Of a DNA stretch of 37,092 bases, positions 5,733 to 37,020 are shown in pieces. Origin of the DNA: Nemertoderma westbladi (lineage: Eukaryota; Animalia; Xenacoelomorpha); assembly GCA_032718475.1 (NCBI GenBank), contig JAUCBJ010001881.1, positions 1-37,092 of the forward strand. The letters run 5' to 3'. The number at the start of each line of letters is the position of its first letter. The stretch's first letter is position 1. The notes beneath the pieces are model-generated. The model was not told where the DNA came from, searched no databases, and saw only the letters and a program-made list of their open reading frames with translations. Position numbers and translations under genes: made by a program.

Positions 5733-6180
5733 CGTGTATTTTTGGAATAAATTCTATATTAGCAGTCTCGTATTTTTTGAATAAATTCTGTATTACCCCC
5801 CCCCCCCCCCCCGTCTCAGTAAACCATGTATTTTTGGAATAAATTCTGTATTACCCCCCCCCCCCCCCGTCTCAGTAAACCATGTATTTTTGGAATAAAT
5901 TCTGTATTACCCCCCCCCCCCCCGTCTCAGTAAACCATGTATTTTTGGAATAAATTCTGTATTACCCCCCCCCCCCCCGTCTCAGTAAACCAAGTATTTT
6001 TGGAATAAATTCTGTATTACCCCCCCCCCCGTCTCAGTAAACCATGTATTTTTGGAATAAATTCTGTATTACCCCCCCCCCCCGTCTCAGTAAACCATGT
6101 ATTTTTGGAATAAATTCTGTATTACCCCCCCCCCCCCGTCTCAGTAAACCATGTATTTCTTGAATAAATTATGTATTACT
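5733..6180. repeat. tandem repeat of about 55-59 bp with a variable poly-C tract, about 7 copies
   Basis: Unit gtatttttggaataaattctgtatta(C)n gtctcagtaaaccat repeated; mainly the C-run length varies. Confidence 0.95.
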
Positions 6181-6520: not shown

Positions 6521-9500
6521 ACCCCATGTGAGATATCCCACCCAATCTGATACAATGCCACCCAATGTGATACATTGCCTCCCAATGTGATACAATGATA
6601 CCCAATGTGATACAATGATACCCAATGTGATACAATGATACCCAATGTGATACAATGCCTCCCAATGTGATACAATGCTACCCAATGTGATACAATGCTA
6701 CCCAATGTGATACAATGCCACCCAATGTGATACAATGCCACCCAATGTGATACAATGCCTCCCAATGTGATACAATGCCTCCCAATGTGATACAATGCTA
6801 CCCAATGTGATACAATGCCTCCCAATGTGATACAATGCTACCCAATGTGATACAATGCTACCCAATGTGATACAATGCCACCCAATGTGATACAATGCTA
6901 CCCAATGTGATACAATGCCACCCAATGTGATACAATGCCTCCCAATGTGATACAATGCCTCCCAATGTGATACAATGCTACCCAATGTGATACAATCCTA
7001 CCCAATGTGATACATTGCCTCCCAATGTGATACAATGCTACCCAATGTGATACATTGCCTCCCAATGTGATACATTGCCTCCCAATGTGATACAATGCTA
7101 CCCAATGTGATACAATGCTACCCAATGTGATACAATGATACCCCATGTGATACAACGCCACCCAATGTGATACAATGCTACCCAATGTGATACAATGCCA
7201 CCCAATGTGATACATTGCCTCCCAATGTGATACAATGCTACCCAATGTGATACAATGCTACCCAATGTGATACATTGCCTCCCAATGTGATACAACGCCA
7301 CCCAGTGTGATACAAGGCTACCCTATGTGATACAACGCCACCCAATGTGATACAATGCCACCCAATGTGATACATTGCCTCCCAATGTGATACAATGCTA
7401 CCCAATGTGATACAATGCTACCCAATGTGATACAATGATACCCAATGTGATACAATGCTACCCAATGTGATACAATGATACCCAATGTGATACAATGCTA
7501 CCCAATGTGATACAATGATACCCAATGTGATACAATGCTACCCAATGTGATACAATGATACCCAATGTTATACAATGATACCCAATGTGATACAATGCTA
7601 CCATACAATGCCACCCAATGTGATACAATGATACCCAATGTGATACAATACTACCCAATGTGATACAATCCTACCCAATGTGATACAATGCCACCCAATG
7701 TGATACAATGATACCCAATGTTATACAATGATACCCAATGTGATACAATGCTACCCAATGTGATACAATGATACCCAATGTTATACAATGATACCCAATG
7801 TTATACAATGCTACCCAATGTGATACAATGCTACCCAATGTGATACAATGATACCCAATGTTATACAATGATACCCAATGTGATACAATGATACCCAATG
7901 TTATACAATGCTACCCAATGTGATACAATGATACCCAATGTTATACAATGCTACCCAATGTGATACAATGATACCCAATGTTATACAATGATACCCAATG
8001 TGATACAATGCTACCCAATGTGATACAATGCTACCCAATGTGATACAATGCTACCCAATGTGATACAATGCCACCCAATGTGATACAATGCCACCCAATG
8101 TGATACAATGCTACCATATAATGCTACCCAATGTGATACAATGCTACCATATAATCCTACCCAATGTGATACAATGCCACCCAATGTGATACAATGCCAC
8201 CCAAAGTGATACAATGCTACCCTATGTGATACAACGCTACCCAATGTGATACAATGATACCCAATGTGATACAATGATACCCAATGTCATACAATGATAC
8301 CCAATGTGATACAATGCCACCCAATGTGATACAATGATACCCAATGTTATACAATGATACCCAATGTGATACAATGCTACCCAATGTGATACAATGATAC
8401 CCAATGTGATACAATGCTACCCAATGTGATACAATGCCACCCAATGTGATACAATGATACCCAATGTTATACAATGATACCCAATGTGATACAATGCTAC
8501 CCAATGTGATACAATGCTACCCAATGTGATACAATGATACCCAATGTGATACAATGATACCCAATGTTATACAATGATACCCAATGTGATACAATGATAC
8601 CCAATGTGATACAATGCCACCCAATGTGATACAATGATACCCAATGTTATACAATGATACCCAATGTGATACAATGCTACCCAATGTGATACAATGCTAC
8701 CCAATGTGATACAATGATACCCAATGTTATACAATGATACCCAATGTGATACAATGATACCCAATGTTATACAATGCTACCCAATGTGATACAATGATAC
8801 CCAATGTTATACAATGCTACCCAATGTGATACAATGATACCCAATGTTATACAATGATACCCAATGTGATACAATGCTACCCAATGTGATACAATGCTAC
8901 CCAATGTGATACAATGCTACCCAATGTGATACAATGCCACCCAATGTGATACAATGCCACCCAATGTGATACAATGCTACCATATAATGCTACCCAATGT
9001 GATACAATGCTACCATATAATGCTACCCAATGTGATACAATGCCACCCAATGTGATACAATGCCACCCAATGTGATACAATGCTACCCTATGTGATACAA
9101 CGCTACCCAATGTGATACAATGATACCCAATGTGATACAATGATACCCAATGTGATACAATGCCACCCAATGTGATACAATGCCACCCAATGTGATACAA
9201 TGATACCCAATGTGATACAATGCCACCCAATGTGATACAATGATACCCAATGTTATACAATGATACCCAGTGTGATACAATGATACCCAATGTGATACAA
9301 TGATACCCAATGTGATACAATGATACCCAATGTGATACAATGATACCCAATGTGATACAATGCTACCCAATGTGATACAATGCCACCCACTGTGATACAA
9401 TGCTACCCTATGTGATACAACGCTACCCAATGTGATACAATGCTACCCAATGTGATACAATGATACCCAATGTGATACAATGCTACTCAATGTGATACAA

Positions 9501-9601
9501 TGATACCCAATGTTATACAATGCCACCCAATGTGATACAATGATACCCAATGTGATACAATGCCACCCAATGTGATACAATGATACCCAATGTGATACAA
9601 T
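6521..9601. repeat. 20-bp minisatellite (cccaatgtgatacaatgcta and variants), roughly 150 copies
   Basis: Continuous array; variants end in gcta, gata, gcca or gcct; a few 7-bp-deleted units. Confidence 0.99.
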
Positions 9602-11224: not shown

Positions 11225-12290
11225 TTTAATTTATCATTAAAATTAATCATTCTTCCACTATTTTTATTGCGTTTTTTTCCATAAATTTAATCATTCTCCA
11301 CTAAAGTTAATCATTCTCCACTAAAGTTAATCATTCTCCGCTAAAATTAATTATTCCATCTTAATTATTGGCATGGGATTCGAAGTACCGGTTCATATTT
11401 TGTTGGTTATGAAAGCCTACCTCTGTAACCTGCTCCTTTCCCCAAATTGGTAACAACATTGCTTATTGTTTTGGTTATAAAAGCCTACCTCTGTAACCTG
11501 CTCCTTTCCCCAAATTGATAACAACACTGTTTACTGTTTTGGTTACGAAAGACTACCTCTGTAACCTGCTCCTTTCCCCAAATTGGTAACAACTCTGCTT
11601 ATTGTTTTGGTTATAAAAGCATCTGCTCCTTTCCCCCAATTGGTAACAACACTGTTTACTGTTTTAGTTATGAAAGCCTACCTATGTAACCTGCTCCTTT
11701 CCCCAAATTGGTAACAACTATGTTTATTGTTTTGGTTATAAAAGCATCTGCTCCTTTCCCCCAATTGGTAACAACACTGTCTACTGTTTTGGTTATGAAA
11801 GCCTACCTATGTAACCTGCTCCTTTCCCCCAATTGGTAACAACATTGCTTATTGTTTTGGTTATAAAAGCCTACCTCTGTAACCGGCTACTTTCCCCCAA
11901 TTGGTAACAACATTGTTTGTTTTGAATATAAAAATCGACCTCTGTAACCTGCTCCCTTTCCCCCAATTGGTAACAACATTGTTTATTGTTTTGGTTATAA
12001 AAGCCTACCTCTGCAACCTGCTCGTTTCCCTTAATTGGTACAACATTGTTTATTGTTTTGGTTAGAAAAACCCCACCCTGTAACGTGCTCTTCTCTTTCA
12101 ATTGGCAACTTCAATATAATTATAGACTATATAGTATATCGTAATTATATAAATATAGTTAGGAGTTGATTTAATTTGGTGGAAAATTAATTAATTTTCG
12201 TGACAAGTGATTAATTTTAGTGATAAGTAATTAAATTTAGTGAAAATGATTAAATTGAGAGAAAGTTATTTTTTTAGTGATGGATAAAAT
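11225..12290. mobile_element. foldback-like composite: inverted arrays of about 20-bp subrepeats flanking an internal satellite
   Basis: Left arm repeats ttaatcattctccactaaa (about 11230-11350); right arm repeats the degenerate complement tttagtgataagtaattaa (about 12170-12270). No TSD identified. Confidence 0.45.
11396..12110. repeat. tandem repeat of about 62 bp, about 11-12 copies
   Basis: Unit ttgttttggttataaaagcctacctctgtaacctgctcctttccccaaattggtaacaacattg with variants. Confidence 0.95.
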
Positions 12291-15074: not shown

Positions 15075-16085
15075 TTAATTATTACAACAATCAATATTAG
15101 ATATTTCGGATGATTTCACTGATGTATGCGGCACGTGAGTGGCAAAGTGTTTTCTAAGAGTATTTATAGCGAGTCTACTAATATTGTGATCATCTTGTTC
15201 TCTCCGCAGAGCATCTTCTAACTCCTTTATATCAACCTTCAACTTATCGACTACCACCATATGGGTGAAGCTTAACGACTCTCGAACATTCTTTAAATCT
15301 AATTCGTGACGTTTCGTTATATTAGTTAGTTTTAAACTCAGTTTGTCTGTCTGTGTCAATGAGTTCGTGAGTTCGGTGTTGGCTTTAGATAATCGGGATT
15401 GTAATTCTTCAACATTATTGCGGAAATGCTCCAACTCTTTCTGCCGCAGTTCAGCGCTTTTATTGATTACTTTAGATTGTTTCTCCAATTCGCGGGATTT
15501 GGCGCCACTTTCTCGATTTTTCCTTATCGATTTCACCAATTTACTATTTCTGTCTTCCAGTAAATCCGTGGTTTGTTTTAATTGGCGCTCTAACTCGGAT
15601 ACCTTAGCGACGAGCTCCCTATTGGTTGTTACTAAGGACTTGTTTACATCACTTAACGACGTATAATGACGTCGCAATGCGTGCAGCTCCGCGGGCGACC
15701 ATATAGACCAGTCGTGGTTGTCGGGTTGCAGTGCGTGACGTCGCCCTGGGAACTGAGTTTTCACTGACCTCCGTTTAACTTTTGTAACCCGACATGCCGG
15801 CTCGGCATCCGTCGTAACATCTACGGTTTGGGTGTCGCGAGGAATCGATTTACTTCCTGGTGGGTAAAATCTATCAATTTTTTTCAGTATTTCGTAGAGT
15901 TCCTTGGTTTCCTCATTATCGACGGAGGCCGGAGTGGTTTTCCCGTCCGCGGGAACGTAGAATTCGGATAACGAGGTGTCGATTTTATGCGCGAAATCCT
16001 CCAAACTGTATTGGTAAGTCGGAGCGAAGAGTTTCCCGATCCAATTAGAATCATATTCTGTGATGCCATCAGTTTCGTTTGCCAT
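15075..16085 (-). CDS. single-exon coiled-coil protein, CCDC160-like (336 aa)
   Basis: Intact ORF with a long C-terminal coiled coil. N-terminal W..LFAP..S.ED, central W...EL..LR and C-terminal A...LRKHF resemble CCDC160 as I recall it; not verified by search. Confidence 0.65.
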   Translation of the reverse strand: MANETDGITEYDSNWIGKLFAPTYQYSLEDFAHKIDTSLSEFYVPADGKTTPASVDNEETKELYEILKKIDRFYPPGSKSIPRDTQTVDVTTDAEPACRVTKVKRRSVKTQFPGRRHALQPDNHDWSIWSPAELHALRRHYTSLSDVNKSLVTTNRELVAKVSELERQLKQTTDLLEDRNSKLVKSIRKNRESGAKSRELEKQSKVINKSAELRQKELEHFRNNVEELQSRLSKANTELTNSLTQTDKLSLKLTNITKRHELDLKNVRESLSFTHMVVVDKLKVDIKELEDALRREQDDHNISRLAINTLRKHFATHVPHTSVKSSEISNIDCCNN

Positions 16086-16448
16086 TGGCTGATGTAGCAG
16101 TGCCGAATATTCGATTTAAATAAAGTATTTTAATTTATTCTACCGGTACTAATCAAACTCCAAAGGATATAGCGCAATGGGAATAGGGTGAGCACGCGAC
16201 AGGTAAGGTTGGTAGCTTGGTACCGGTACTGTTACTGGTATTCTGTGCTTTTATATTGGCATAGTTGTCGGTTGCCTGGCAATCAATTTCAAACCAAAGA
16301 CAATACAGTTTGGCGGGATATTTAACTTTGAAACAGTTGGGCTGGGTACTGGGAATAAATTGCAGTACTTACTACAGTCGACAGTTTACAGTAGTGGTAC
16401 CAGAGCTACAAGCTACCGAATTCTGGTGATAAGAGATATGAATTAATA
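16086..16448. promoter_or_regulatory. putative bidirectional promoter between the CCDC160-like gene and PIG-W
   Basis: 363 bp between divergent ATGs; RFX X-box-like GTTGCCTGGCAAT at 16271-16283; E2F-like TTTGGCGGGA at 16309-16318. Confidence 0.55.
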
Positions 16449-17289
16449 ATGGTTCAATTTAAAGATGAAAGGGAGAGATTTGTGTCAAATTTAAGAGGAA
16501 CTACAATTGTCGAGATATTTCTACACATCGCAATTATTCCAGCATTGTTCCTCTTACAGTCTGCGGTGTCCACCACTCTACTACCACCGGTGCGATCCCA
16601 ATGGATTCACTTCGCAGTCGACTACCTATGTCTTAACGTGGCCCTCGCTCTAAGCGTCACCGTTCTAGCCGATAACATTGCGGAGCTGATCGGCTTCACG
16701 GTAGTCGTATCGATGTTTCTCCTGTGCGTCCAGCGGTTATTCATAACCGACCGTAGGCTCGAGCCCTACCATGGAGGGGAGCTTCTCTACGCGGATATGA
16801 AGCAATCCATCTCGCGATTTAAATGCGGCGCCAATGTTATTACCTCGCTGTGTATCCTGGCCGTCGACTTTCCGATATTCCCCCGCCGACTCGCTAAAAC
16901 CGAGACCTACGGTACCGGGTTGATGGACTTCGGCGTGAGTTTTTTCGTCGTTTGTAACGGGATAGTCGCCCCTGAAGCCAGACCGAACAAGATCTCACGG
17001 CGGGAGGCCGTGGGTAAAGCGATAAATTCATCAGTGCCCCTCCTATTCCTCGGAATGATTCGCGTTGTGGCGTTAAAGACGGTCGATTACCAGGAACACG
17101 TGTCGGAATACGGAACTCATCTCAACTTCTTCTTTATATTAGCCGGAGTAAAGATAATCTCGAGTCTTATATTCACTGTATTCCAACTTTCCTGGGCTTT
17201 CCTCGTGGCCGTCAGTACCGCTATATTCCACGAGGTGGCGTTGGATTTCGGTATCCGTGACTACGTGCTTCTCACGGAGACCCGTTTAG
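16449..17289 (+). CDS. PIGW: PIG-W / GWT1 GPI inositol acyltransferase, exon 1
   Basis: Motifs FVSNLRGT, CILAVDFPIFPRRLAKTETYGTGLMDFGV and YQEHVSEYGTHLNFFF are characteristic of GWT1/PIG-W; ends ...TRL-G at TTTAG|GT. Confidence 0.95.
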
Positions 17290-17292
17290 GTC

Positions 17293-18079
17293 ACATGAGA
17301 GTAAAAACCCAAGCGATCATTTTGTGAACATCCAATGATATTGCCTGTTTTATAAATGCTTTAAGTTGTTATGGGATGTTCTGTTTGATTGGTTGTTATG
17401 TGATTTACTTGCTAATCTTGGTCAGTATTAAATACATTAAATCAACAAGCACTGATCAATGTGTACAGATATACAGTAGGAGTCAATATGTTTCACAGGG
17501 GGCATGATGATTTTCGAAAACATATCTTGGTAAATTAAAAGCACATCCCGGCGAATTAGCAATGATAATTATTAAGTGAGGGAAAGTATTATTTATATTA
17601 TATCTGTATTACATATTATTTACCTACATTAAATGTCCAGTTACTGCTCATCTGCTGTGTATTGTACGATATGACAGTATTTTACAAAGATTAAAGCTGT
17701 AAAGAGGCCTGGCCTCTACAGCTCTATCCTAGAACCTAGAGGAAGAGTCCATCAATTGTATTATAATCTTAAGTACATTCCTGCATTCTTTCATTATTAC
17801 GTCAGTCACTGCAAACAATCACTCATAGCGTCATTGGTAAGTGTGTTAGAGTCTGAGAGTACATGTAGAGCTACCGGCATACTGCTAATATTTAAATGTA
17901 AACTACTAAGTTACATTGATCGCTTGTTGATTTAGTGCATTTAATACTGGCCAAGATTAGCAAGTAAATCACACAACAACCAATCAAACAGAACATCCCA
18001 TAACAACTTAAAGCATTTATAAAACAGGCAATATCATTGGATGTTCACAAAATGATCGCTTGGGTTTTTACTCTCATGT
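17293..18079. mobile_element. non-autonomous DNA transposon with TIRs of about 165 bp and 9-bp TSD, inserted in the PIG-W CDS and forming the putative intron 17290-18085
   Basis: ACATGAGAGTAAAAACCCAAGCGATCATTTTGTGAAC... at 17293 is the near-perfect reverse complement of the sequence ending at 18079; GTTTAGGTC at 17284-17292 and 18080-18088. An alternative reading is CAC..GTG termini with a 7-bp TSD. Confidence 0.95.
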
Positions 18080-18085
18080 GTTTAG

Positions 18086-18600
18086 GTCTCCTCGACGCCA
18101 ATAGAGAAGGTCTCGTCGCTACTATGGGATACGTCGCCATCTACATCGCCGGAGTCTGGCTGGGTCGTCAGTTACTTAGCGCCCAGAATTTCTCCGGAGT
18201 TGTTAGTCGACTAGCTTGGACCTGTCTGTGGTCCACCTTGGCTTATATCTTAGTTGTGGAGAATATCGACGAGGTTTCCCGCAGGCTAGCCAACCTATCC
18301 TTTATAGTGGCTTCGATAATGCTCTCAGTTACAACAATATTTCTATTGACTTTCGTGAATATTATAGTTAAATCGACCTCGGCATTCCAACCACGCTCAT
18401 TGCTAGAAGACAGCGTTAATAGAAACGCCTTAGCTTATTTCCTATTAGCTAATTTGGGAACGGGTCTAGTAAATTTCCTTTTCGACACGATTTACACCAA
18501 AGATCATCACGCCTTCATAATTATCTCTATTTACATGTTTATTCTCAGTCTTATCATATTTTCTATGCATATGTCGAACATTTCCACTAAGTTCTGGTGA
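18086..18600 (+). CDS. PIGW: PIG-W / GWT1, exon 2 (joined protein 451 aa)
   Basis: GLLDANREG, VSRRLANLSF and NRNALAYFLLANLGTGLVN match the GWT1 domain; 841+515 nt = 452 codons in frame. Confidence 0.93.
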
Positions 18601-19652
18601 TGGTAAGCGTATATGTAAGAAAACATTAACAACGTATTGTATATATCATTTGTATATCAGTTCAATATCAAATAATGGAGGCTTATGGAAGCGTTAACAG
18701 CTAGCTGCAAGACAACATGGGGCGGTATTAACACACAGCGACTGGTGGATTCATTATCGGAATTGTAAACAGAACCAACAACATATAAGCCCAGACAGGA
18801 TGTTAGTTATCTTTATCTACCACCCCAGTCAGCCAACCAACTGATAAAACTATGTCAACATAATAGGTAGGAAGTTTGAGCTGCTGACATGTTGAATTAT
18901 TGGACTAGGTATTAATATTTGATTAGAGAATTGATTGCCTGTATCTCTATAAGATCTGTTCAAAGCCTGTTTAACAACTCACTTCTTGTGCAATTTAGTT
19001 TGATTCGGTATTCTATATAAATTAATATTGCCATATCTGTAGTTTATCATAAATTATTTCTTCCTAGAGTATCATTATTGCTGTACTTTAAAAATCAAAG
19101 CCCAATTGGCCAATTCCAAACCAATTGGAGTAGGTTATCTTATTTGTGGCAACGGAAAGAATCACCAACTGTATTTATTACTTATTTATTCTTCAGATTA
19201 ACCTATAGGCCTAATGTTGTTGACATTTATGTATATCATAGCGCGGTCAGAGCCAGATCAGCAAATACATATGGTCGATTTCCATTGAACCTTCATTGTA
19301 TGTCGCCTTTTCGTAGCAACAGATGACCTGCTACATCCATTTTATTAAATCCCAGCTGGAGGCGGAAGGAATTAAACGACGTTAAATTAATATTCAGGGG
19401 TCAATAAATATATGGAAATGTATTACTCTGAACGTGCTAACAAATCCAAGTAAATCATTAAATTATCCTTTTTGTGGCTTTTGTAGGTGATGTGTACTTA
19501 CAATCTATCAATTGCGACCTTTTTTGAGCGGATAGAGCCTAATCAATCAATCGAATTATAATAACGAATCCAATCAATTATACAATGTAAATAGGACAAT
19601 AAGATAATGCTCTCCATAGCGAAAAATATCAACCGGCCCTATTGGGGCTCGA

Positions 19653-19696
19653 ACCCGGTACCTAGGTTTCAAACTTCTGGTTATCATCAGCCGGGT
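19653..19696 (-). ncRNA. type I hammerhead ribozyme motif
   Basis: Minus strand: ACCCGG CTGATGA TAAC-CAGAA-GTTT GAAA CCTAGG TA CCGGGT. Perfect 6-bp stem I, both core boxes, short stem II, palindromic stem III (ACCTAGGT), predicted GUA cleavage between 19659 and 19658. Confidence 0.85.
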
Positions 19697-21857
19697 GATA
19701 TTTGATTCACCGCGTCACTCGCCCCACAACAATTCACTTATTATTATGAATCCAATCAATCGAATTATAATCACTAATCCAAGTGAATTTCTGTGAATTT
19801 CCATTAGATACCATTTTTTGTAAACCAATTGAATAATAATAATTGGCGATTCACTACCCCATTAACAGACGAGTGTGTGTTGCACAGCAGGGCTGTTTAT
19901 TACTTAACGAGGAAATTAATTTCTTCACTTTGGAAATTTGATGTACATTTATCGAGTTTTATGTATAGAAATGTTGAGCTCCACTCCAATCTACATAGAC
20001 AGTGATTTATTATGTTGCAATAGTTTACTTTTCAGTCCATATTACAAAAAATTGAGAATGTGATTATTAATTATTGTGTAAATGCGTTTTGAAATGGCAG
20101 TTACACATCAAATCCTCATGCAGTATTTAGGACGTTGATAGACACCATTAAAGTTAGTTACTTAGTTACTGAGACCTGACACTTCCCTATTCAGGACGCC
20201 GTGCCAAAGAGCTCTAAGTGGACTGAGAGACTTTATGATTCTGACTTTAGGACAGTCGTAATTAATTACATAGTTCTAGTCTGTGAAAAGAGCCATATAT
20301 CACAAGTTTTAAGTAATTTTTTTTTAATATTTGCAGCCTTTTATTGTAGGAGTACAAAAAATAAATAATAAATTAGAATATATTTTTTTACGCCAGGTTC
20401 ACAGTCACAGTTATTATTTATGTACTTATTGGTACTAGTTATTGCCTGTTGCTGAACCATTAACGGCTTATTAATTTATATTTTATTTACACTCTGCCAT
20501 ATCACCGAGGATCGGGGTACTCGAATTGACTTTCTTAGAACAGTGACCCCCGGGTAATGACCAGTCCACTATAGGGTGGGCCGTGGCCGTTCATATTGAA
20601 CCATAATACCATATTATTACACGAAATATATTGGACTATGAATTGGTTGGTATGCGGCGTCGAGCAATGTTTTTTCTTTCAATCAATTCATCACAACTTC
20701 CTTCAAACCTTATATTGTGACTGGACTTTTACTATTGAGATTTCTCACTCACTATTGAGATAGCGTGTATAAACAATATAATTTAATCGGATTTCACAGG
20801 TTCAGTTCCAAACATTTGATGTTGAATCTTTGCACTATGCATGTGATAGATTACCACGAACCACGACAATGCAAGAGTTCGGTTGAATCCTGGGTCAAGG
20901 ATGTAAAATGATAACTAAATAATAATATTATTGCATTGTACTAAATAACCTCTAGATATGAGACTAGGTCGGGATATTTCCATATCACTAAAGTTATTGT
21001 CAACGAAACTGTTTTGAGTTGGAGATAACATAAGTATATAACAGCAGGAGAGCTCATACTCGCACCAATGTGCCACTAATATAATCATCCTGTGCCCTGC
21101 CTATCACTATATATAATTCAATTGTTATCCATATCCAGTGTAGTTATTATATTAGAACCATATTTAGCCGGTTAGCAGTACTTAGCAACACTTTACAATA
21201 TATATATATATTATTTACTGAAGGATAGAATGTTTGGTTATATTTTACTTAGGAATTGATTTTTATTATTTAACGAAACGATTTATTCGGAAAATAGGAA
21301 GTAAATCAAACGATAAGCCGAAACTCAAACCGACCGATCGACTTAGCCATTACCCCGTCCAATTGACTTGCTGAAGTTTTAAGCCATTAACGAATTGCAA
21401 GAACACGACTCATACAAACTTCACTCACGCGTATCATCAAACAAACTACGTGCATTTGAATAAAGGAAAGCCCGGCCGGGTCACAGTCCATTTTTACATG
21501 TGCCGGTATCCCAAGCAATTCCTCGCAGCCAAATTGCAAATTAGATTACCCGGTTAACACGGGAGTTTTTAACTAACCTAACCGTAGCACGAGGCATTCA
21601 TTACGTTACAAAACAATCATTCAATATAAAGGTAAAGGGGACGTTATTTACAAGATTGTTTAAATATGTCAGCGAGATAACATTTAATTGGCTGCAAAGT
21701 GCAAATGTATCAGATAACAATTTATAAATATGATTGATTTCTTGAATACGTGGAAAATTATGTATAAATTGGAAAATATTCTCTATTGTAAAACATTTTG
21801 ATAGTCATTGCCGAATTTTTAACACGATTTGATTGGGTGATATTGAAAAATAACTAA

Positions 21858-22565
21858 ATGATGTACAGCGTTTTGTTGTCATTACTTGTTGCCATGGTAT
21901 CAACAACTGCGAGCGGTGAGAATGCCCCGGTATATATACGGCTAGTTAAACCGGATGCTGAGACCGCAGATGTGGAGTTTGTGGACGTCAAAGACCCGAT
22001 TACTGGCGACGTCATCGGAACAACCGCGGTGTTCGCCAACGAATCTGCCGTAGAACACAACTCTCTTAGAATTTCCTGTTTCACTCCGAGTCTAACAATG
22101 ATTAAAAGATTGATGGCATTGTATTATTTCAGCGATTTGGAAGGACCTTACCCGAATAACTTAAGAGACTTGACTGTTTATGGGAATAACCTTTCAACAA
22201 CATGGGAATTTAACGGAGTGCCTGTCTACGAGTGGATTCTAGGTATAGACGTGAAGCTCATTCGAGGTCGCTATTTCTACGTGTGCGGCGGTTACTCTAA
22301 TGAAACGTGGGTCTACTCGAGAGGGAAACACTATACAAACCAACCAAGGTATCGGGGGAACCAATCAAGGTATCAGGTAGTTCATGCAACCTTCCAAGAC
22401 TCAATGGAGAAAGAGCTAGATACGAGCGACAAAGATAAAAGTAAACCTAACAACCCAGCCGTTCAAAGGCTATACAATGAAGGGAACACTTTACAGCGAT
22501 GTTATTGGAGGAATGTTTTACTATCAATTCTTACACTATCTGTCTTTATTCTCTCGTATGAATAA
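21858..22565 (+). CDS. single-exon protein of unknown function with signal peptide and C-terminal hydrophobic tail (235 aa)
   Basis: Intact ORF; N-terminal MMYSVLLSLLVAMVSTTASG, C-terminal VLLSILTLSVFILSYE, several N-X-S/T sites; AATAAA overlaps the stop. Confidence 0.7.
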   Translation: MMYSVLLSLLVAMVSTTASGENAPVYIRLVKPDAETADVEFVDVKDPITGDVIGTTAVFANESAVEHNSLRISCFTPSLTMIKRLMALYYFSDLEGPYPNNLRDLTVYGNNLSTTWEFNGVPVYEWILGIDVKLIRGRYFYVCGGYSNETWVYSRGKHYTNQPRYRGNQSRYQVVHATFQDSMEKELDTSDKDKSKPNNPAVQRLYNEGNTLQRCYWRNVLLSILTLSVFILSYE

Positions 22566-28560: not shown

Positions 28561-28929
28561 TTATGATTATAAAATGTAATGGTTATTAATTTTAATAACA
28601 AAGCATTTTAGATAATTTTAGTAAATTTTTTGAGTTCTCTTTCTTCTATAATTTTAAGTGCACTGTGCAAATTGACAATAGCGGGTGCTAGTGCTGTCAA
28701 TTCCTGACATTGGTCAATTGGTTGGGGGGGGGGGGGGGGGGGGGGGGGGTGGTACTGGAAAAAGGGAAGGGGAGGGCAGAGCGGGGGAAACAAAACAACG
28801 CGGATTGGGTTTGTTTTCTCTGTCGATTACTTTATGTTTAGCGTTATTTGAGGTAAATATTATATAAGTATAAAAAATGTATATATATAAAATATAAATG
28901 TAAAAAAATATGTATATATAAAAAAAAAA

Positions 28930-30530
28930 GTATGGCCCCTGGGTGGTTCCGCAGGGGGCTAGAACTGGTTCTGAGTGTGTGTTTCCTATGTAGACGGTGT
29001 GTGTTCGGTTGTGTAGGAAACTTGTGACCAGTTTGTTACGAATCCTTCGTATACCGTAACTATCTAATTTATTTAGTAATATATTGTGCTGCAAGGTATC
29101 AAAAGCTTTTTAAGGTCTATCGATATTAAGAGTTCTGATTCTTGTAATTCTAGAATATTTATTAGTTTTTCAGTTACAGTAAGTATGGCGTCAGTAGTTG
29201 TAGTGCGCTTTCTGAAACCGTATTGATTGTGAGTAAATATTGAGTTTGAGTACTTGTCTAACTGACTGTCTGTAGTCTGTTAATCGGGTCAGTAATGTTT
29301 GACACTATGGCTTCATACCAACTCACTAAAATGATCAATACAATATGGGGGTTTTCGGGGTCGGTGATTTAATTTCTGCTGTCACTTTTAATGTTTGGTG
29401 GTATCTAAAATGCATGTCTGACAGTTTGTCTGTCTGTCTGGCTTCTGAATTTTGACGGACAAACTGATAGACGGAAAGACAGCGATAACTCGAGAACTAA
29501 AAAAGATATTGTCAAACCGTTTTAAGATTTGAACTCCCCAGTAAATTATGCATCAGATGAAATAAAAAACTAAAAATGTGAAAAGTTAACACAAGGAGGG
29601 GGTTACCCCCCCCCCCCCCCACCTTAATTAAAATTAGAATAATCGTAAAAGTAGCGGCTATCGGGAGGGTTAAAAATGCATGAGTAATTTTGGACTCTCA
29701 TAAATGTACCCAAGTAATCAGTAGTGCCTATTCCTGTCAGAAAAATACCGCCAGAAAAACACCAGGAGTAACTATATATTCGGTCACGTATATCTGTAGA
29801 TATATGGTCGATCAATGACTTTGAAATCTGTGTAATTCTAGATGGAACTATAATTGTTGAAGGGAGTGAGATTCTATGGTGTGTAAATATTTCATGGAGT
29901 TATTAGTTTTTTAAAAGGTCTATGTTAAAGTCCCCTGTTAAAATTATATATAGATTTTGAGTAAGTAAATTGTAGATGGTTTTATTTAAGTTTTCCAAAA
30001 AATTGTTTCATCCGATTAATGTTGGTTTTGCAATTTTTTTTTATCGTGATATACTAACCCACGAAGATTTGCAGTGTTCAATTGAAATGTCAGTTCGGTG
30101 TATGTAGTATGGCTGCACCCCTCGGTTTCGCTTTCCGTATTGTCGGTTGTCTGTAAGTGGAGTTGAGTAGCCATGTATCTTCAAAGTTGTAAGATCAGTA
30201 TTGTCAGTTAAAAACGTCTTAGTCAGTTAGTAAAAGCAAGTACGTCAAATTATTGGTCTAGATTAAAGTAATCAATTGTAGCTTACAATTTTTATTAAGG
30301 CTCCTACAGTTTAAGTGATATACTGAAAATGAGTTGTTTTTAGGGAGAACGTTAAATTTAGTATCAGAAAAATATTTACCGTGAGTATTATTAGAATCTA
30401 GGTTTTGATTTGGATCTATATTTTGAAATGTGGCGTCGTAATCGTCAAAGTTAGCAGGTAAGTCAAAGTCGACTTCGACATTGTAAAGCGAAAATCACAC
30501 GTTGTTTGGTTTTGGAGGCTCATAGGGTAA
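28930..30530 (-). mobile_element. decayed CR1/L2/Jockey-group LINE (endonuclease and RT fragments) with nested insertions
   Basis: Minus-strand QYGFRK...KAFDTLQHNILLNKLDSYGIR...GTTQG at about 28935-29230 and ILTGDFNIDLL at about 29915-29945; frameshifted. Confidence 0.75.
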
Positions 30531-30619: not shown

Positions 30620-32958
30620 GTCTCTGGAAATGTATTGTTTTCGGCTGGAACCCAGTTTAAGAAGCGAACTGGAAAGCTATGGACTCATAGTGGAGCCAGT
30701 GGTCACAAGTGACAGATAGACCACATCCTGTTTCGTAGGAAATACAGGAGCTCTATACAAGACTGTAATGCATTTACACTTCGACCCTTCTCCAGTGATC
30801 ACCGCCTTATTGTGGCCAAGGTAAGACTTAGTATTCGTGCCAGCAGAACAACGAAATCTGCCTTGCCGCGGCATGACTGGTCCTCTCTGTTGCAGCAGCC
30901 AAGTGTGAGATCCAGCTTCACACTAAAGCTGAGCAACAGGTATGAGGTTCTTGCCTCTGAGGCGGCAGATCACTGTGAGGGCTATACTGCCTTCACAGAA
31001 GCAGTGAAGTTAGCAGCTGCAGAAACAGTTCCTGTATAACCTCGAAACAGGAAAAGGGCCCCCTGGACTGACAACAAAATTCAGAAGTGCCGAAATGACC
31101 CCTATAAGGCGCAGAAAGAGTCCCCACTCAAACAGACTACAGCGGCCAAGAATGCAGTTAGGGCTGCATCTAGGTCCCTGAACAGGCAGTACTCTGTTAA
31201 TCTACAGGAGCTAATAAACCAACAGGTTGATGCCATCAATGATGCTGACGACAGCAGGCAATCATCCCAGGCATGGAAATCGATCAACTTGCTTACTGGT
31301 CGGAAAAGCCAACCAACCACCAAGGTTAAGGCTGAATCACCAGCCGATCGCCTCAATGGTTGGAAGGCCTACTTTGAAAAGCTCCTCAATAATGACAGGG
31401 TATTGCCTGATAACTTTATAGAAGTAAAAGTGTCTTAGTCTGTAGGCCTACTCCCAGAAATTCCCATTGGCGATATCTCCCTTGAAGAAGTGAATGCTGC
31501 TGCAAAGAGCATTAAGACAAATCGTGCCAGTGGAGTAGATGGTGTTCCCCCGAGGTCTTTAAAATACCCGAGTGTTTAAAGCTCATCTATCCCATCATAG
31601 TAGACATGTGCCGAACAACAAGAGTCCCACAAGAAATGAAAACAAATAAGTTGGTGCCAGTTCCCAAGAAGGGCAACCTAACACTCTATGGTTCTTTTCG
31701 GGGAATCTCATTGATCTCGATTGCTGCAAAGCTATACAATAGAATTATATTAAATCGCATCAGGGATCCCATTGAGAGACTGATCCGTGGAAATCAGAAT
31801 GGGTTCCGTAGAGGTCGTGGGACCATAGAGCCCATTTTGGCACTTAGAATGATAATTGAAGATTGAAGATCACGTATGCTCAGCATACTTTCATTATATG
31901 GGATTCCTGATGAAATTATTGCAGCAATCAGATCAGTATACGATGGTTCGACAACATTTGTGTCTACTGTTGACGGTGACACAGAACCATTTGAAGTGTT
32001 ATGGGGCGTCCTCCAGGAAGACACACTTGCACCATTCTTGTTCATAATTGTGGTTGACTATGTTCTACGCATGTCCTTAGATCATCATAATGATGGTGGG
32101 GTGATGATAACTCCACCTACTGGCTCCAGAAGACGAGGAAATCCTGCCAAGTACCTAACTGATCTAGACTTTGCTGATGACTTAGGAGTACTCTCAGAAT
32201 CACTAGAGGGAGCCCAGCGGCTCCTCAGCTCATTAGAACATGCTGCTTCTAGTGTTGGTCTTTTTATTAACTCCAGAAAGACCAACATTTTGACAGTTAA
32301 CTTTGAAAGTCCTCAGCAAGTCTCTGATCGGATGAGCATAAGCTCAAAGGATGGTATGCTTGAGCATGTGGACGACTTCTGTTACCTGGGATCATGGATC
32401 CGGAAGTCAGGTGAGGCCCTTCGAATACGCAAGGGAAAGGTATGGGCAGTCTTGAATAGGCTTTCCAGGATTTGGAAGTCACCGAGAATTAATCGGAAAC
32501 TTAAGGTCCGATTATTTAGAGCAGCAGTAGTTCCAGTACTCCTCTATGGGAGTCCATGCTGGGCTCTAACTGCTGAGGACACCAAATCTCTGGATGGCAC
32601 ATTCGCAAGAATGCTACGCCTGGTTCATTGTGTCAAGTACAATGCACACATCTCCAACCAGACACTATATAACATTGGAGGTGTCTCATTGGTTCCCCCA
32701 AGCTTGACACTAGAACAAAATCGCCTCCGCTTTGCAGGACATTGCTTTCGCCGTGAGGACCAGCCAGTACATAATCTTGTTCTTTGGCAGCCTCATGTAG
32801 TGAATAAGCATGGTGGACCGCCCATGATTTTCTTGGGACGCATCTTAAAGGACACTGGCCCTGAAGATGAGGATGATCTAGCAAATGTCATGGGTGATAG
32901 GGAGTTGTGGCGGCGCAATTTTGTCGACAAGCCGGCATAGCATTCTTAAACACACACC
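30620..32958 (+). mobile_element. 5'-truncated RTE-clade LINE, inactive, antisense in the first CK2 beta coding-region intron
   Basis: End of the endonuclease domain, RT motifs VPVPKKG, FRGISL, NQNGFR, GVLQEDTLAPFLF, DLDFADD, FCYLGS; stops, frameshifts and loss of the D..KAFD block near 31862; short (CA)n tail. Confidence 0.9.
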
Positions 32959-35000: not shown

Positions 35001-35230
35001 AAAACATTAATTTTTTTTTAGCAAAACATTAATTTTTTTTAAAACATTAATTTTTTTTAGCAAAACATTAATTTTTTTAGCAAAACATTAATTTTTTTTT
35101 AGCAAAACATTAATTTTTTTTAGCAAAACATTAATTTTTTTTAGCAAAACATTGATTTTTTTTAACAAAACATTAACTTTTTTTTAGCAAAACATTAATT
35201 TTTTTTAGCAAAACATTATTTTTTTTTTAC
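35001..35230. repeat. tandem repeat of about 21 bp (aaaacattaattttttttagc), about 11 copies
   Basis: Directly visible; T-run length varies. Confidence 0.95.
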
Positions 35231-35379
35231 AAACTTAAATAACTTTTTTTAAACGTTTAAAAAAAAATGCAATAATTGGCCGCAACTCACCACCGTATAT
35301 TACGGATGCAATATAAATTTTACATAATATATCAATACTATATGGTATTCCAAATTCACGTTATAGATTATGGATAGAT

Positions 35380-37020
35380 AGTTTTATAGCTTTCTTAAAT
35401 TTATACAGATTTATTGATTGTCGAACAGCGGTTGGTAGAGCATTCCAGACCTCTGGTGCCAGTGCCATATCACTCGTATAGATTGTTTAGCAACCAGTAA
35501 TCGTGTTCGGGGGACTGTGCACTTCCCACGTGCAGTCATTGTTGGTGGCGGTGCGCGTTCGGTGTTGGTGGGTTGTAGATGTGAATGTAAGAAGTGATGT
35601 GAACATGTCTAGAGGTCCTGTATAATCTTTTCTATGTGAGTGTAGCAAAGTGTTTGCTACCTGTTTGATGTATATGGACCGTATAGTTAGTGGGTGGAAA
35701 TTAGGGTTTCCCCTACTGATTACAATACATTCATTCTGCTTTCTGTTGTAATTTATGTAATGTTTTCAATGTTGTATCGGGTGAGTCAGTAGGTGACCGA
35801 GGTTTTCGTCGGCGTCTTGGGTGTGTGTGTCCGCGTCCGTGGTGTGAGTGTCCGGGGTGTGAGTGTTCGGGGTGTGAGTGTCCGGGGTTGTGTTGGGAGG
35901 AGACTGGGGGCATTGTACTGAATGATTTTGTTGACCATACGGCATTACAATACTGTAAGTAAGGGTCAACTAGTGTATTATATAGTATAATTAGTATTTC
36001 GGGCTTTACAAAGTTTTTTATTTTGTTAATTATACCGATGTTGCGGCTGAGTTTATTGAGAATGTGATAATGTGATATGGTATTTCCATGTCAAGTGTTC
36101 ATTCATCTATTAGAAATGCCAAGGAATTTAATCACTTTACATCGGTCAATAATATAATTATCGATTTTGATTGCGGTTTCAGGGTGGATGGAGCCTTATT
36201 TGTTTATTATGTGTATGGAATATTATGTAATTTGTTTTTTTTTTAATTTAGGGTCAATCTGCTACTGTATTAAGACTGAACCACTCAGTGAAAAGTTCTT
36301 CGTTTATGTCAGCAATTACTCGGTTTAAGTCCGTATCTGATTTGAATAAGTTAGTGTCATCAGCGAATAGTATAAACTTTACATGGTTTGATATATTGGT
36401 GACGTCATTCGTGTACAGTATATAATGAAAAGTAGAGGGCTAAGTAGACTACCCTGGGGCAGTCCTATTACAATTGTTAATCGAGCCGACTTTCCTGTTC
36501 TTATGGTAACAAACTGAACACGATCAGTGAGGTAGTTTGTTATCCAAGCTAGAACTATATCGGCTATTCCGTATCGTTGTAGTTTTTTAATAAGTATCTG
36601 GTGGTTCACTGTATCGAAGGCTTTGGACAGATCCAATGACACTCCTACAGTGAACTCACCCTTGTCGAGAGACCCTGTAACGTGCTCCAGTAGTGTTAGT
36701 ACACGTAGTGCATGTTGGGTTGATTGATTATGTCTGAAGCCAAATTGCGATGGCGAGTTTAGTTAAATAGTCAGGAAGTTCTGTATGTACGATTTTTTTA
36801 GAATTTTAATTTCGAGAAGTAACAGAGAACAGATATTGGCCTGTAGTTTTCTACAAAGAGGTAGGATTTGCAGCTTTGTATAAAGGTGTAACGCAAGCAA
36901 TTTTAATTTGTTTTGGCCTAGTTCCCCTGCAAAGGGAAAGGTTTATAATGTAAGCAAGTGGTTCTGCAATTAATGAAATTGTTTGTTGGGTGTGCACTTG
37001 ATGCAGCTAATTTATCATAC
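35380..37020 (-). mobile_element. decayed CR1/L2-like LINE (RT to 3' end), interrupted at 37020 by an LTR
   Basis: Minus-strand LDLSKAFDTVNH, GLPQGSLLSPLLF and LFADDT motifs with frameshifts; a 15-bp tandem repeat at about 35820-35890. Confidence 0.85.

Follow-up and report, generated by a model that had tools for sequence, protein, structure and literature searches.

A tRNA-derived repeat with a nested candidate hammerhead ribozyme and Penelope-like insertion marks in Nemertoderma westbladi

Repeats that couple a tRNA-derived promoter to a self-cleaving ribozyme are known from Schistosoma, whose Sm-alpha and Sj-alpha elements are drawn as a tRNA-derived promoter followed by a hammerhead (PMC6765202, legend to Fig. 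6G; PMC2770079). Hammerheads are also carried by the terminal repeats of Penelope-like elements (PLEs), such as PAc of Anolis (PMC11167929), Pen2a of Adineta (PMC3846280), and those with minimal hammerheads (PMC4209133), and by the tandem non-LTR (non-long terminal repeat) retrozymes, which are argued to be PLE-derived and yield circles of 170-400 nt (PMC7229834; bioRxiv 10.64898/2026.07.22.740005). Here, we describe a 169-bp insert in the xenacoelomorph Nemertoderma westbladi (assembly GCA_032718475.1, contig JAUCBJ010001881.1), which carries a candidate hammerhead embedded in tRNA-derived sequence. The whole stretch analyzed, positions 1 to 37,092 of the forward strand (37,092 nt), is called the window below.

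Like Sm-alpha and Sj-alpha, the family to which this insert belongs combines a tRNA-derived, RNA polymerase III (Pol III)-type element with a type I hammerhead at very high copy number. However, the schistosome elements are tandem and are drawn with the ribozyme after the promoter, whereas here the ribozyme lies between the promoter boxes, with the B box 3' of the core; moreover, some of its strands double as variable loop and T stem, its cut would halve the promoter, and a run of five T residues (T5) follows the tRNA end. With PLE terminal repeats it shares a palindromic short stem III, an internal end roughly 80-90 nt downstream of the hammerhead, an optional tail, an inverted copy at the 5' side, a short duplication, and an AT-rich target, but it differs in that no open reading frame (ORF) is seen, tRNA sequence flanks the core, stem II is short and lacks the G10.1-C11.1 pair, and the tail measures 50 bp. 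The metazoan non-LTR retrozymes are similarly short, non-coding, equipped with a type I hammerhead, and proposed to depend on PLEs; they are tandem, whereas the window holds a single unit and no go-back joint occurs among those listed, the head of the element being absent from the window. A word search of PMC7229834 and bioRxiv 10.64898/2026.07.22.740005 gave no tRNA-derived promoter. Among the publications searched, none described a hammerhead lying between an A box and a B box; this search did not reach the primary Schistosoma papers, Lunse 2017, Dfam, or Repbase, and the supplementary alignments of PMC4209133 and PMC7229834 could contain similar motifs. The nested ribozyme-in-tRNA design was thus not found in print, while the pairing of a tRNA promoter with a hammerhead is already published for Sm-alpha.

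The reading that we favor, with a rough probability of 0.62, is that the insert is a copy, truncated at its 5' end and inverted in part, of a high-copy, non-coding hammerhead/tRNA family that would be copied by Penelope-like enzymes. Its outline is as follows.

19579-19747: the whole insertion, 169 bp, made up of the truncated body (minus strand) and the inverted tail (plus strand); delimited by a 13-bp duplication, loose ends, and a rise in depth
19748-19760, minus strand: upstream copy of the target-site duplication, 13 bp, beginning ATT; perfect match to 19566-19578
19566-19578, minus strand: downstream copy of the target-site duplication; perfect match to 19748-19760
19544-19573 and 19753-19782, minus strand: arms of a 30-bp repeat, target DNA with a 27-bp period, outside the element
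19579-19621, minus strand: AT-rich 3' body where many copies end, recognized by loose ends with long, unlike flanks
19698-19747, plus strand: 3' tail, 50 bp, with an AC-rich middle and a (TTA)n end, inverted at the 5' side; recognized by opposite-strand joints

The family was surveyed in Logan contigs from four public DNA runs of three studies (X1-X4, with X3 taken from the same sample as X1). Such contigs drop rare paths, their summed depth is not a copy number, and the joints and ends counted below are distinct ones among the matches listed. The element was matched by 1330 (X1), 737 (X2), 891 (X3), and 101 (X4) contigs, and summed depth in X1 rose to 3.3 × 10^5 inside the insert (range 10^4 to 3 × 10^5), compared to 24 in the flanks. 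At the 1% level, five positions vary, all of them within 19602-19641, and none does within 19642-19697 (X1 and X3), with X4 adding single-contig changes at 19645 and 19650. The family is therefore high-copy and homogeneous, and its youth accounts for the homogeneity as well as selection does. An earlier note on this DNA, made from the letters alone, had called for a search for copies and arrays and for conservation of the ribozyme core among copies; the copies exist in abundance and their core shows no variant at or above 1%, whereas no tandem unit, and no further copy, was found inside the window. Pattern searches for copies returned 10 metagenome loci (0/10 homologous) and 12 loci in viral contigs (0/12 homologous); a core pattern gave 0 loci in GTDB, an A-box plus 3'-half pattern gave 0 in viral contigs, and a tRNA 3'-half pattern gave two viral loci, neither of them called as a tRNA. 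One additional run, X6 (guessed to be RNA, from another organism), held a single 181-nt contig of depth 3 with the tail and 3' part and with core letters unlike those of the element; it was not used as expression evidence.

Both outer junctions of the insertion are spanned by contigs with unique flanks, and other copies break off at 19579 and 19747 in the public contigs, matching its borders. Excision of the 169-bp insert together with one copy of the duplication leaves a target with a 27-bp period. The 30-bp repeat (28/30 identical between its arms, at single-copy depth) exists because a 27-bp tandem duplication in the target is combined with the 13-bp target-site duplication. The earlier note had taken this repeat to bracket a 209-bp unit; the repeat stands, but it is single-copy target DNA and the unit is 169 bp. 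The first 7 bases of the downstream duplication (19566-19578) equal the continuation of the family into its tail, a microhomology seen at an X4 loose end before 19572. One target duplication was thus seen directly, and the family is dispersed at high copy number, as for a short interspersed nuclear element (SINE).

The internal arrangement of the insert was read from joints in other copies. At least six distinct opposite-strand joints lead from the body end (19575-19603) into the plus strand at 19698-19716, including 19579-19701, 19582-19698, and 19590-19713, and further joints with inserted letters link 19618/19627 to 19698. Since other copies continue from the body into the plus strand at 19698-19716, the segment 19698-19747 is the 3' tail of the family, flipped to the front here; its middle (19716-19737) is 82% A+C. 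The window copy is a 5'-truncated body joined to an inverted 50-bp 3' tail. By revealing the tail, the same joints told against a miniature inverted-repeat transposable element, a candidate in which the leader and trailer would have been terminal inverted repeats. They also dispose of the A box that had been proposed within this block: at its true place (19717-19707, minus strand) it agrees with the consensus at 6/9 positions, a score reached by 3.5% of minus-strand window positions, and the block lies on the opposite strand, 3' of the body, in other copies, making it the antisense of the tail and not a promoter box of the family.

Head-to-head duplications of the body recur in the family (19649-19691, 19634-19673, 19657-19697, 19659-19697, and 19653-19694). 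Of the inversion arms, two stop next to the predicted cut (at 19657 and 19659, no more than 1 nt away), a weak post hoc hint that cut RNA may sometimes serve as a template. In X1, loose ends before 19579, 19590, and 19603 comprise 10, 20, and 18 contigs, respectively (agreement 0.53-0.56), and ends within 19579-19621 probably mark internal start sites of reverse transcription. The 3' ends are scattered across 19579-19603 and the tail may be absent, so the fixed 3' end expected of a SINE primed like a long interspersed nuclear element (LINE) is not seen; tail depth in X1 was 5 × 10^4 to 7 × 10^4, about one-fifth of core depth, a soft figure since depth near block ends is biased low.

The candidate ribozyme occupies the minus strand of the body, and its parts were assigned by descriptor match.

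19653-19696, minus strand: type I hammerhead with a 6-bp stem I and a 3-bp stem II closed by U.U (descriptor, Rfam, and folding)
19696-19691, minus strand: 5' strand of stem I
19690-19684, minus strand: core CTGATGA
19683-19671, minus strand: stem II, 13 nt
19670-19667, minus strand: GAAA
19667-19660, minus strand: palindromic 8-nt stem III
19659/19658, minus strand: predicted cut, between 19659 and 19658, after the GUA triplet
19658-19653, minus strand: 3' strand of stem I

Thus, CUGANGA, GAAA, and NUH surround three helices and the ends lie in stem I, as in type I hammerheads. The complete type I core that the earlier note had described on this strand was recovered: over the whole window the descriptor gave 19653-19696 and one poor second match, and an equally good match (6-bp stem I with three stem II pairs) occurred in 0/300 dinucleotide-matched random windows. 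In the Rfam check that it suggested, model HH9 matched the hammerhead with a score of 19.7 bits (E = 0.041), falling well short of the gathering score of 52, and there were zero matches over the window at gathering thresholds. The 3' strand of stem II and GAAAC (19675-19666, minus strand) also resemble a second B box or T loop that can pair with the true B box, and may be a duplicated T loop.

We then compared the sequence around the core with tRNA genes, using standard tRNA numbering and the A- and B-box consensus.

19634-19663, minus strand: tRNA 3' half, positions 44-73, in gap-free register with tRNA genes L025-L029
19646-19655, minus strand: B box GGTTCGAGCC, the sole match in the window on either strand
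19622-19626, minus strand: T5 run, Pol III terminator-like, 7 nt after tRNA position 73
19624-19636, minus strand: distal strand, consisting of the acceptor 3' end and trailer (folding; loose-end consensus behind 19698)

From 19663 to 19634, the minus strand reads AGGTA, a variable loop that is also the 3' strand of stem III with the cut triplet, and then CCGGG, a T-stem 5' strand that is also the 3' strand of stem I, followed by a T loop, a decayed T-stem 3' strand, the acceptor 3' strand, and the discriminator. As had been claimed, the B box (19655-19646) overlaps the 3' strand of stem I; its chance of arising in a given 30 nt is 1.8 × 10^-4, it has no variant at or above 1% in X1 and X3, and the one X4 contig with G57A still keeps the consensus. 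The T5 run shows no indel at or above 1%. When a 31-letter pattern in tRNA spacing was searched against GTDB, five loci were found and 5/5 were called tRNA genes (three Ile-AAT, one Arg, and one undetermined). The open positions of that pattern were chosen with tRNA-Ile in mind and fix nearly all of the 22-23/30 tRNA identity, so that the match shows register and not isotype, with Ile as no more than a lead. The three tRNA-Ile(AAT) genes (L025-L027), whose anticodon is of the eukaryotic type, lie on short contigs of bacterial genomes and are likely contamination. ARAGORN found nothing over the window, and the Rfam tRNA model did not match the headless copy at E up to 10.

The 5' half of the tRNA was found in other copies. 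Upstream of stem I, the majority of copies depart from the window sequence, and on the minus strand their loose ends read a leader, GG(C/T)CTGG, TAGCTCAGT, and then 4-5 bases before stem I. This head stands behind 19698 in all four DNA runs (11, 9, 9, and 4 contigs; agreement 0.67-0.97), and by inspection it equals tRNA positions 1-16, with the first nine A-box positions present and a better A box, TAGCTCAGT, than that of the window. Six of the seven acceptor pairs form by inspection, and pairing survives the changes seen at positions 3 and 66 as well as the C-to-T change at 71. Together, these alignments place the hammerhead between tRNA positions 1-16 and 44-73 in the family, and the window copy has lost its A box. 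The ribozyme replaces the D/anticodon region, with the T-stem 5' strand serving as stem I and the variable loop as the cut triplet, so that the predicted cut would fall at tRNA bond 48/49; the A and B boxes would likely recruit Pol III. In this respect, the central idea of the hybrid proposed earlier, a ribozyme standing in for the anticodon arm and bracketed by Pol III boxes, holds for the family, though by way of an A box lost from the window copy; a circular 209-nt retrozyme unit is not supported.

Folding predictions separate the window copy from its relatives. In the window copy, the distal strand pairs with the 5' strand of stem I and the adjoining junction bases; this distal helix has 12/13 pairs (11 of them with probabilities of 0.91-0.95, the remaining one with 0.75), and the active fold lies 8.2 kcal/mol above the distal-helix fold, or 4.2 without the junction bases. 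The competing helix noted earlier is therefore present, and dominant here, but the conformational switch built on it falls away, since six bases of the competing strand, the outermost ones, belong to the start of the flipped tail and were created by the inversion junction, and the first pair (19636) varies in about 40% of depth. Lacking an A box and predicted to misfold, the window copy is likely dead. In head-bearing copies, by inspection only, the distal strand has an alternative partner in the leader and acceptor 5' strand. For a dimer, the minimum-energy structure has an 8-bp stem III (-34.6 vs. -9.9 per monomer). The modeled ribozyme is likely to be slow and assisted by dimerization or protein. 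In the literature, PLE hammerheads cleave poorly in vitro (PMC4209133), and the PAc ribozyme of the anole requires protein, its cleavage being dispensable in vitro (PMC11167929).

An optional tail, head-to-head inversions, and variable AT-rich ends together likely point to Penelope enzymes. Published accounts of PLEs report a truncated copy standing inverted on the 5' side and a tail of 30-40 bp that may be present or absent (PMC8557442), as well as target-site duplications of 8-10 bp (PMC3846280). For PAc, both strands are nicked at ATT, reverse transcription starts 85-92 nt past the cut in AC-rich RNA, and there are two internal start sites with the tail between them (PMC11167929). In the element, the body end lies 80 nt and the tail end about 127 nt past the predicted cut, and both an inverted 5'-side copy and an optional tail are found. 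We propose that Pol III would mainly yield a pre-tRNA-like RNA, about 100 nt long and terminated at T5, and that some RNA would read past T5 into the AT-rich body and tail. A Penelope reverse transcriptase (RT)-endonuclease would bind that RNA and nick both strands of AT-rich DNA, and reverse transcription would start at two places, the body end and the tail end. For the window copy, one strand would have copied the body back to stem I and the other the tail only, the two products being joined head to head inside the 13-bp duplication. In head-bearing copies, the leader and acceptor could pair with the trailer, freeing the ribozyme to fold on the T-stem strand. A cut at bond 48/49 would part the A box from the B box, and only uncut RNA could therefore found promoter-bearing copies.

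The strongest competitor to this scheme, which we nevertheless regard as unlikely, is that the family represents the terminal repeat (pLTR) of a coding PLE with a captured tRNA gene, the short copies being truncated insertions. All the insertion marks fit it equally well, and a 39-codon frame (19580-19696, minus strand) is open through the ribozyme and body with its ATG within the core, as PLE ORFs begin at the hammerhead (PMC11167929; PMC3846280). By inspection, however, that frame closes at the tail start; its peptide has no homologue among 1.84 billion representatives or in a word search, both of which are weak for 39-40 residues; and, with its leader-trailer helix and T5, the tRNA part is closed off as an independent gene would be. 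Less probable again is a LINE-driven tRNA SINE that carries a hammerhead, with the window copy produced by twin priming and (TTA)n as a LINE-type priming tail. The plus strand does read as duplication, inverted upstream part, 3' part with (TTA)n, and duplication, which is the layout of L1 twin priming; there is a 3-base overlap at the break, and RTE-type LINE remnants lie in the window (30713-32940). In contrast, many copies end in the body without the tail, consistent with the soft one-fifth tail depth in X1, and in several of the inversions the 3' body is doubled in full, unlike in twin priming, so the Penelope-like insertion pattern is the better fit. Very improbable is a circularizing 209-nt SINE/retrozyme unit with a conserved on/off helix switch. 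In its favor, the inhibitory helix is strong in the window copy, 7/8 of its inner pairs are also possible in family copies by inspection, and the circles of retrozymes are self-paired (PMC7229834). Against it, the repeat that brackets the unit is target DNA at single-copy depth, the outer six helix bases come from the inversion junction, position 19636 varies, the window has no tandem unit, and no joint from 3' end to head occurs among those listed, where such joints could be missed with the head absent from the window.

Several observations weigh against copying of a tRNA-nested hammerhead by Penelope enzymes. On the side of the ribozyme, stem II is without the usual G10.1-C11.1 pair, having U.U or, after a bulged U, A-U in its place, in contrast to a pair that is highly conserved in hammerheads (PMC4209133). 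Its pair probability is at most 0.05, so a stable stem II is not predicted; even with the trailer blocked, a helix joining the B box to the 3' strand of stem II (0.58) outcompetes stem I (0.38); and the active dimer form makes up only 0.12 of the ensemble, with stem II unformed. The stems show zero variants at or above 1% in 19642-19697 and hence no covariation, unvarying pairs being uninformative. On the side of the tRNA, the head is without G18-G19 and without the second D strand, and it is seen only as 30-letter consensus rows with a 5' end beyond view that may continue into a coding PLE. Behind 19697 (44, 32, 37, and 4 contigs), the same head motif is blurred, with agreement of only 0.48-0.57. 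At tRNA position 71, C is often replaced by G (20-26% of depth), which breaks an acceptor pair unless position 2 changes as well. The inner junction at 19697 is bridged by no contig in X1, X2, or X4, which is not probative, as rare paths are dropped. On the side of mobilization, the tail is 50 bp vs. the 30-40 bp published, and T5 lies upstream of both inferred RT starts, which means that the mobile RNA would have to arise by read-through or from a different promoter. No PLE protein was found among the 11 long window ORFs scanned, and the peptide of the 39-codon frame, as above, has no homologue, so that no partner PLE was found there for the proposed mobilization step.

Elsewhere in the window, a PIGW (GWT1) gene, whose best matches are mostly animal (34-41%) and place the host no more closely than as a divergent eukaryote, is interrupted at 17285-18087. 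The inserted element measures 789 bp, has inverted ends of 159 bp that match at 97%, and is flanked by a 7-bp duplication, TTTAGGT, that provides the GT at 17290 and the AG at 18085. Removal of the 796-bp intron restores the PIGW frame (ETRLG/LLDANREG), and the insertion is an introner-like transposon. A broken LINE with endonuclease-like and RT pieces lies at 30713-32940, which from its motifs we take to be RTE-type, and minus-strand LINE remnants lie at 28714-29109 and 35731-36762, the latter with a Pfam RT match at 36379-36762. Simple repeats include a run of 26 G at 28724-28749, a 20-bp satellite of 155 copies (6540-9601), and arrays of 55, 68, and 21 bp at 5770-6179, 11396-12090, and 35001-35233, respectively. 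Two further open frames are without a Pfam match: 346 codons at 15075-16115 (minus strand), coiled-coil-like, and 235 codons at 21858-22565 (plus strand), with hydrophobic ends like those of a secreted, anchored protein.

Taken further, the ribozyme and promoter may form one interleaved object, a Pol III-transcribed element that exploits Penelope enzymes and is built on the scaffold of a tRNA (probably Ile), in which an active cut at bond 48/49 would set the share of promoter-bearing offspring; we offer this extension tentatively, at well under even odds. SINEs are taught as parasites of LINEs, and an abundant, young tRNA-derived family with Penelope marks would add a second enzyme class. Here, the predicted cut falls between the promoter boxes, and copies truncated at 19658 vs. 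head-bearing copies would therefore count how often cut RNA serves as a template. If the extension is true, the element would be a natural case of a tRNA gene remodeled into a working ribozyme, and it illustrates how few changes may make a tRNA variable loop and T stem into the parts of a hammerhead.

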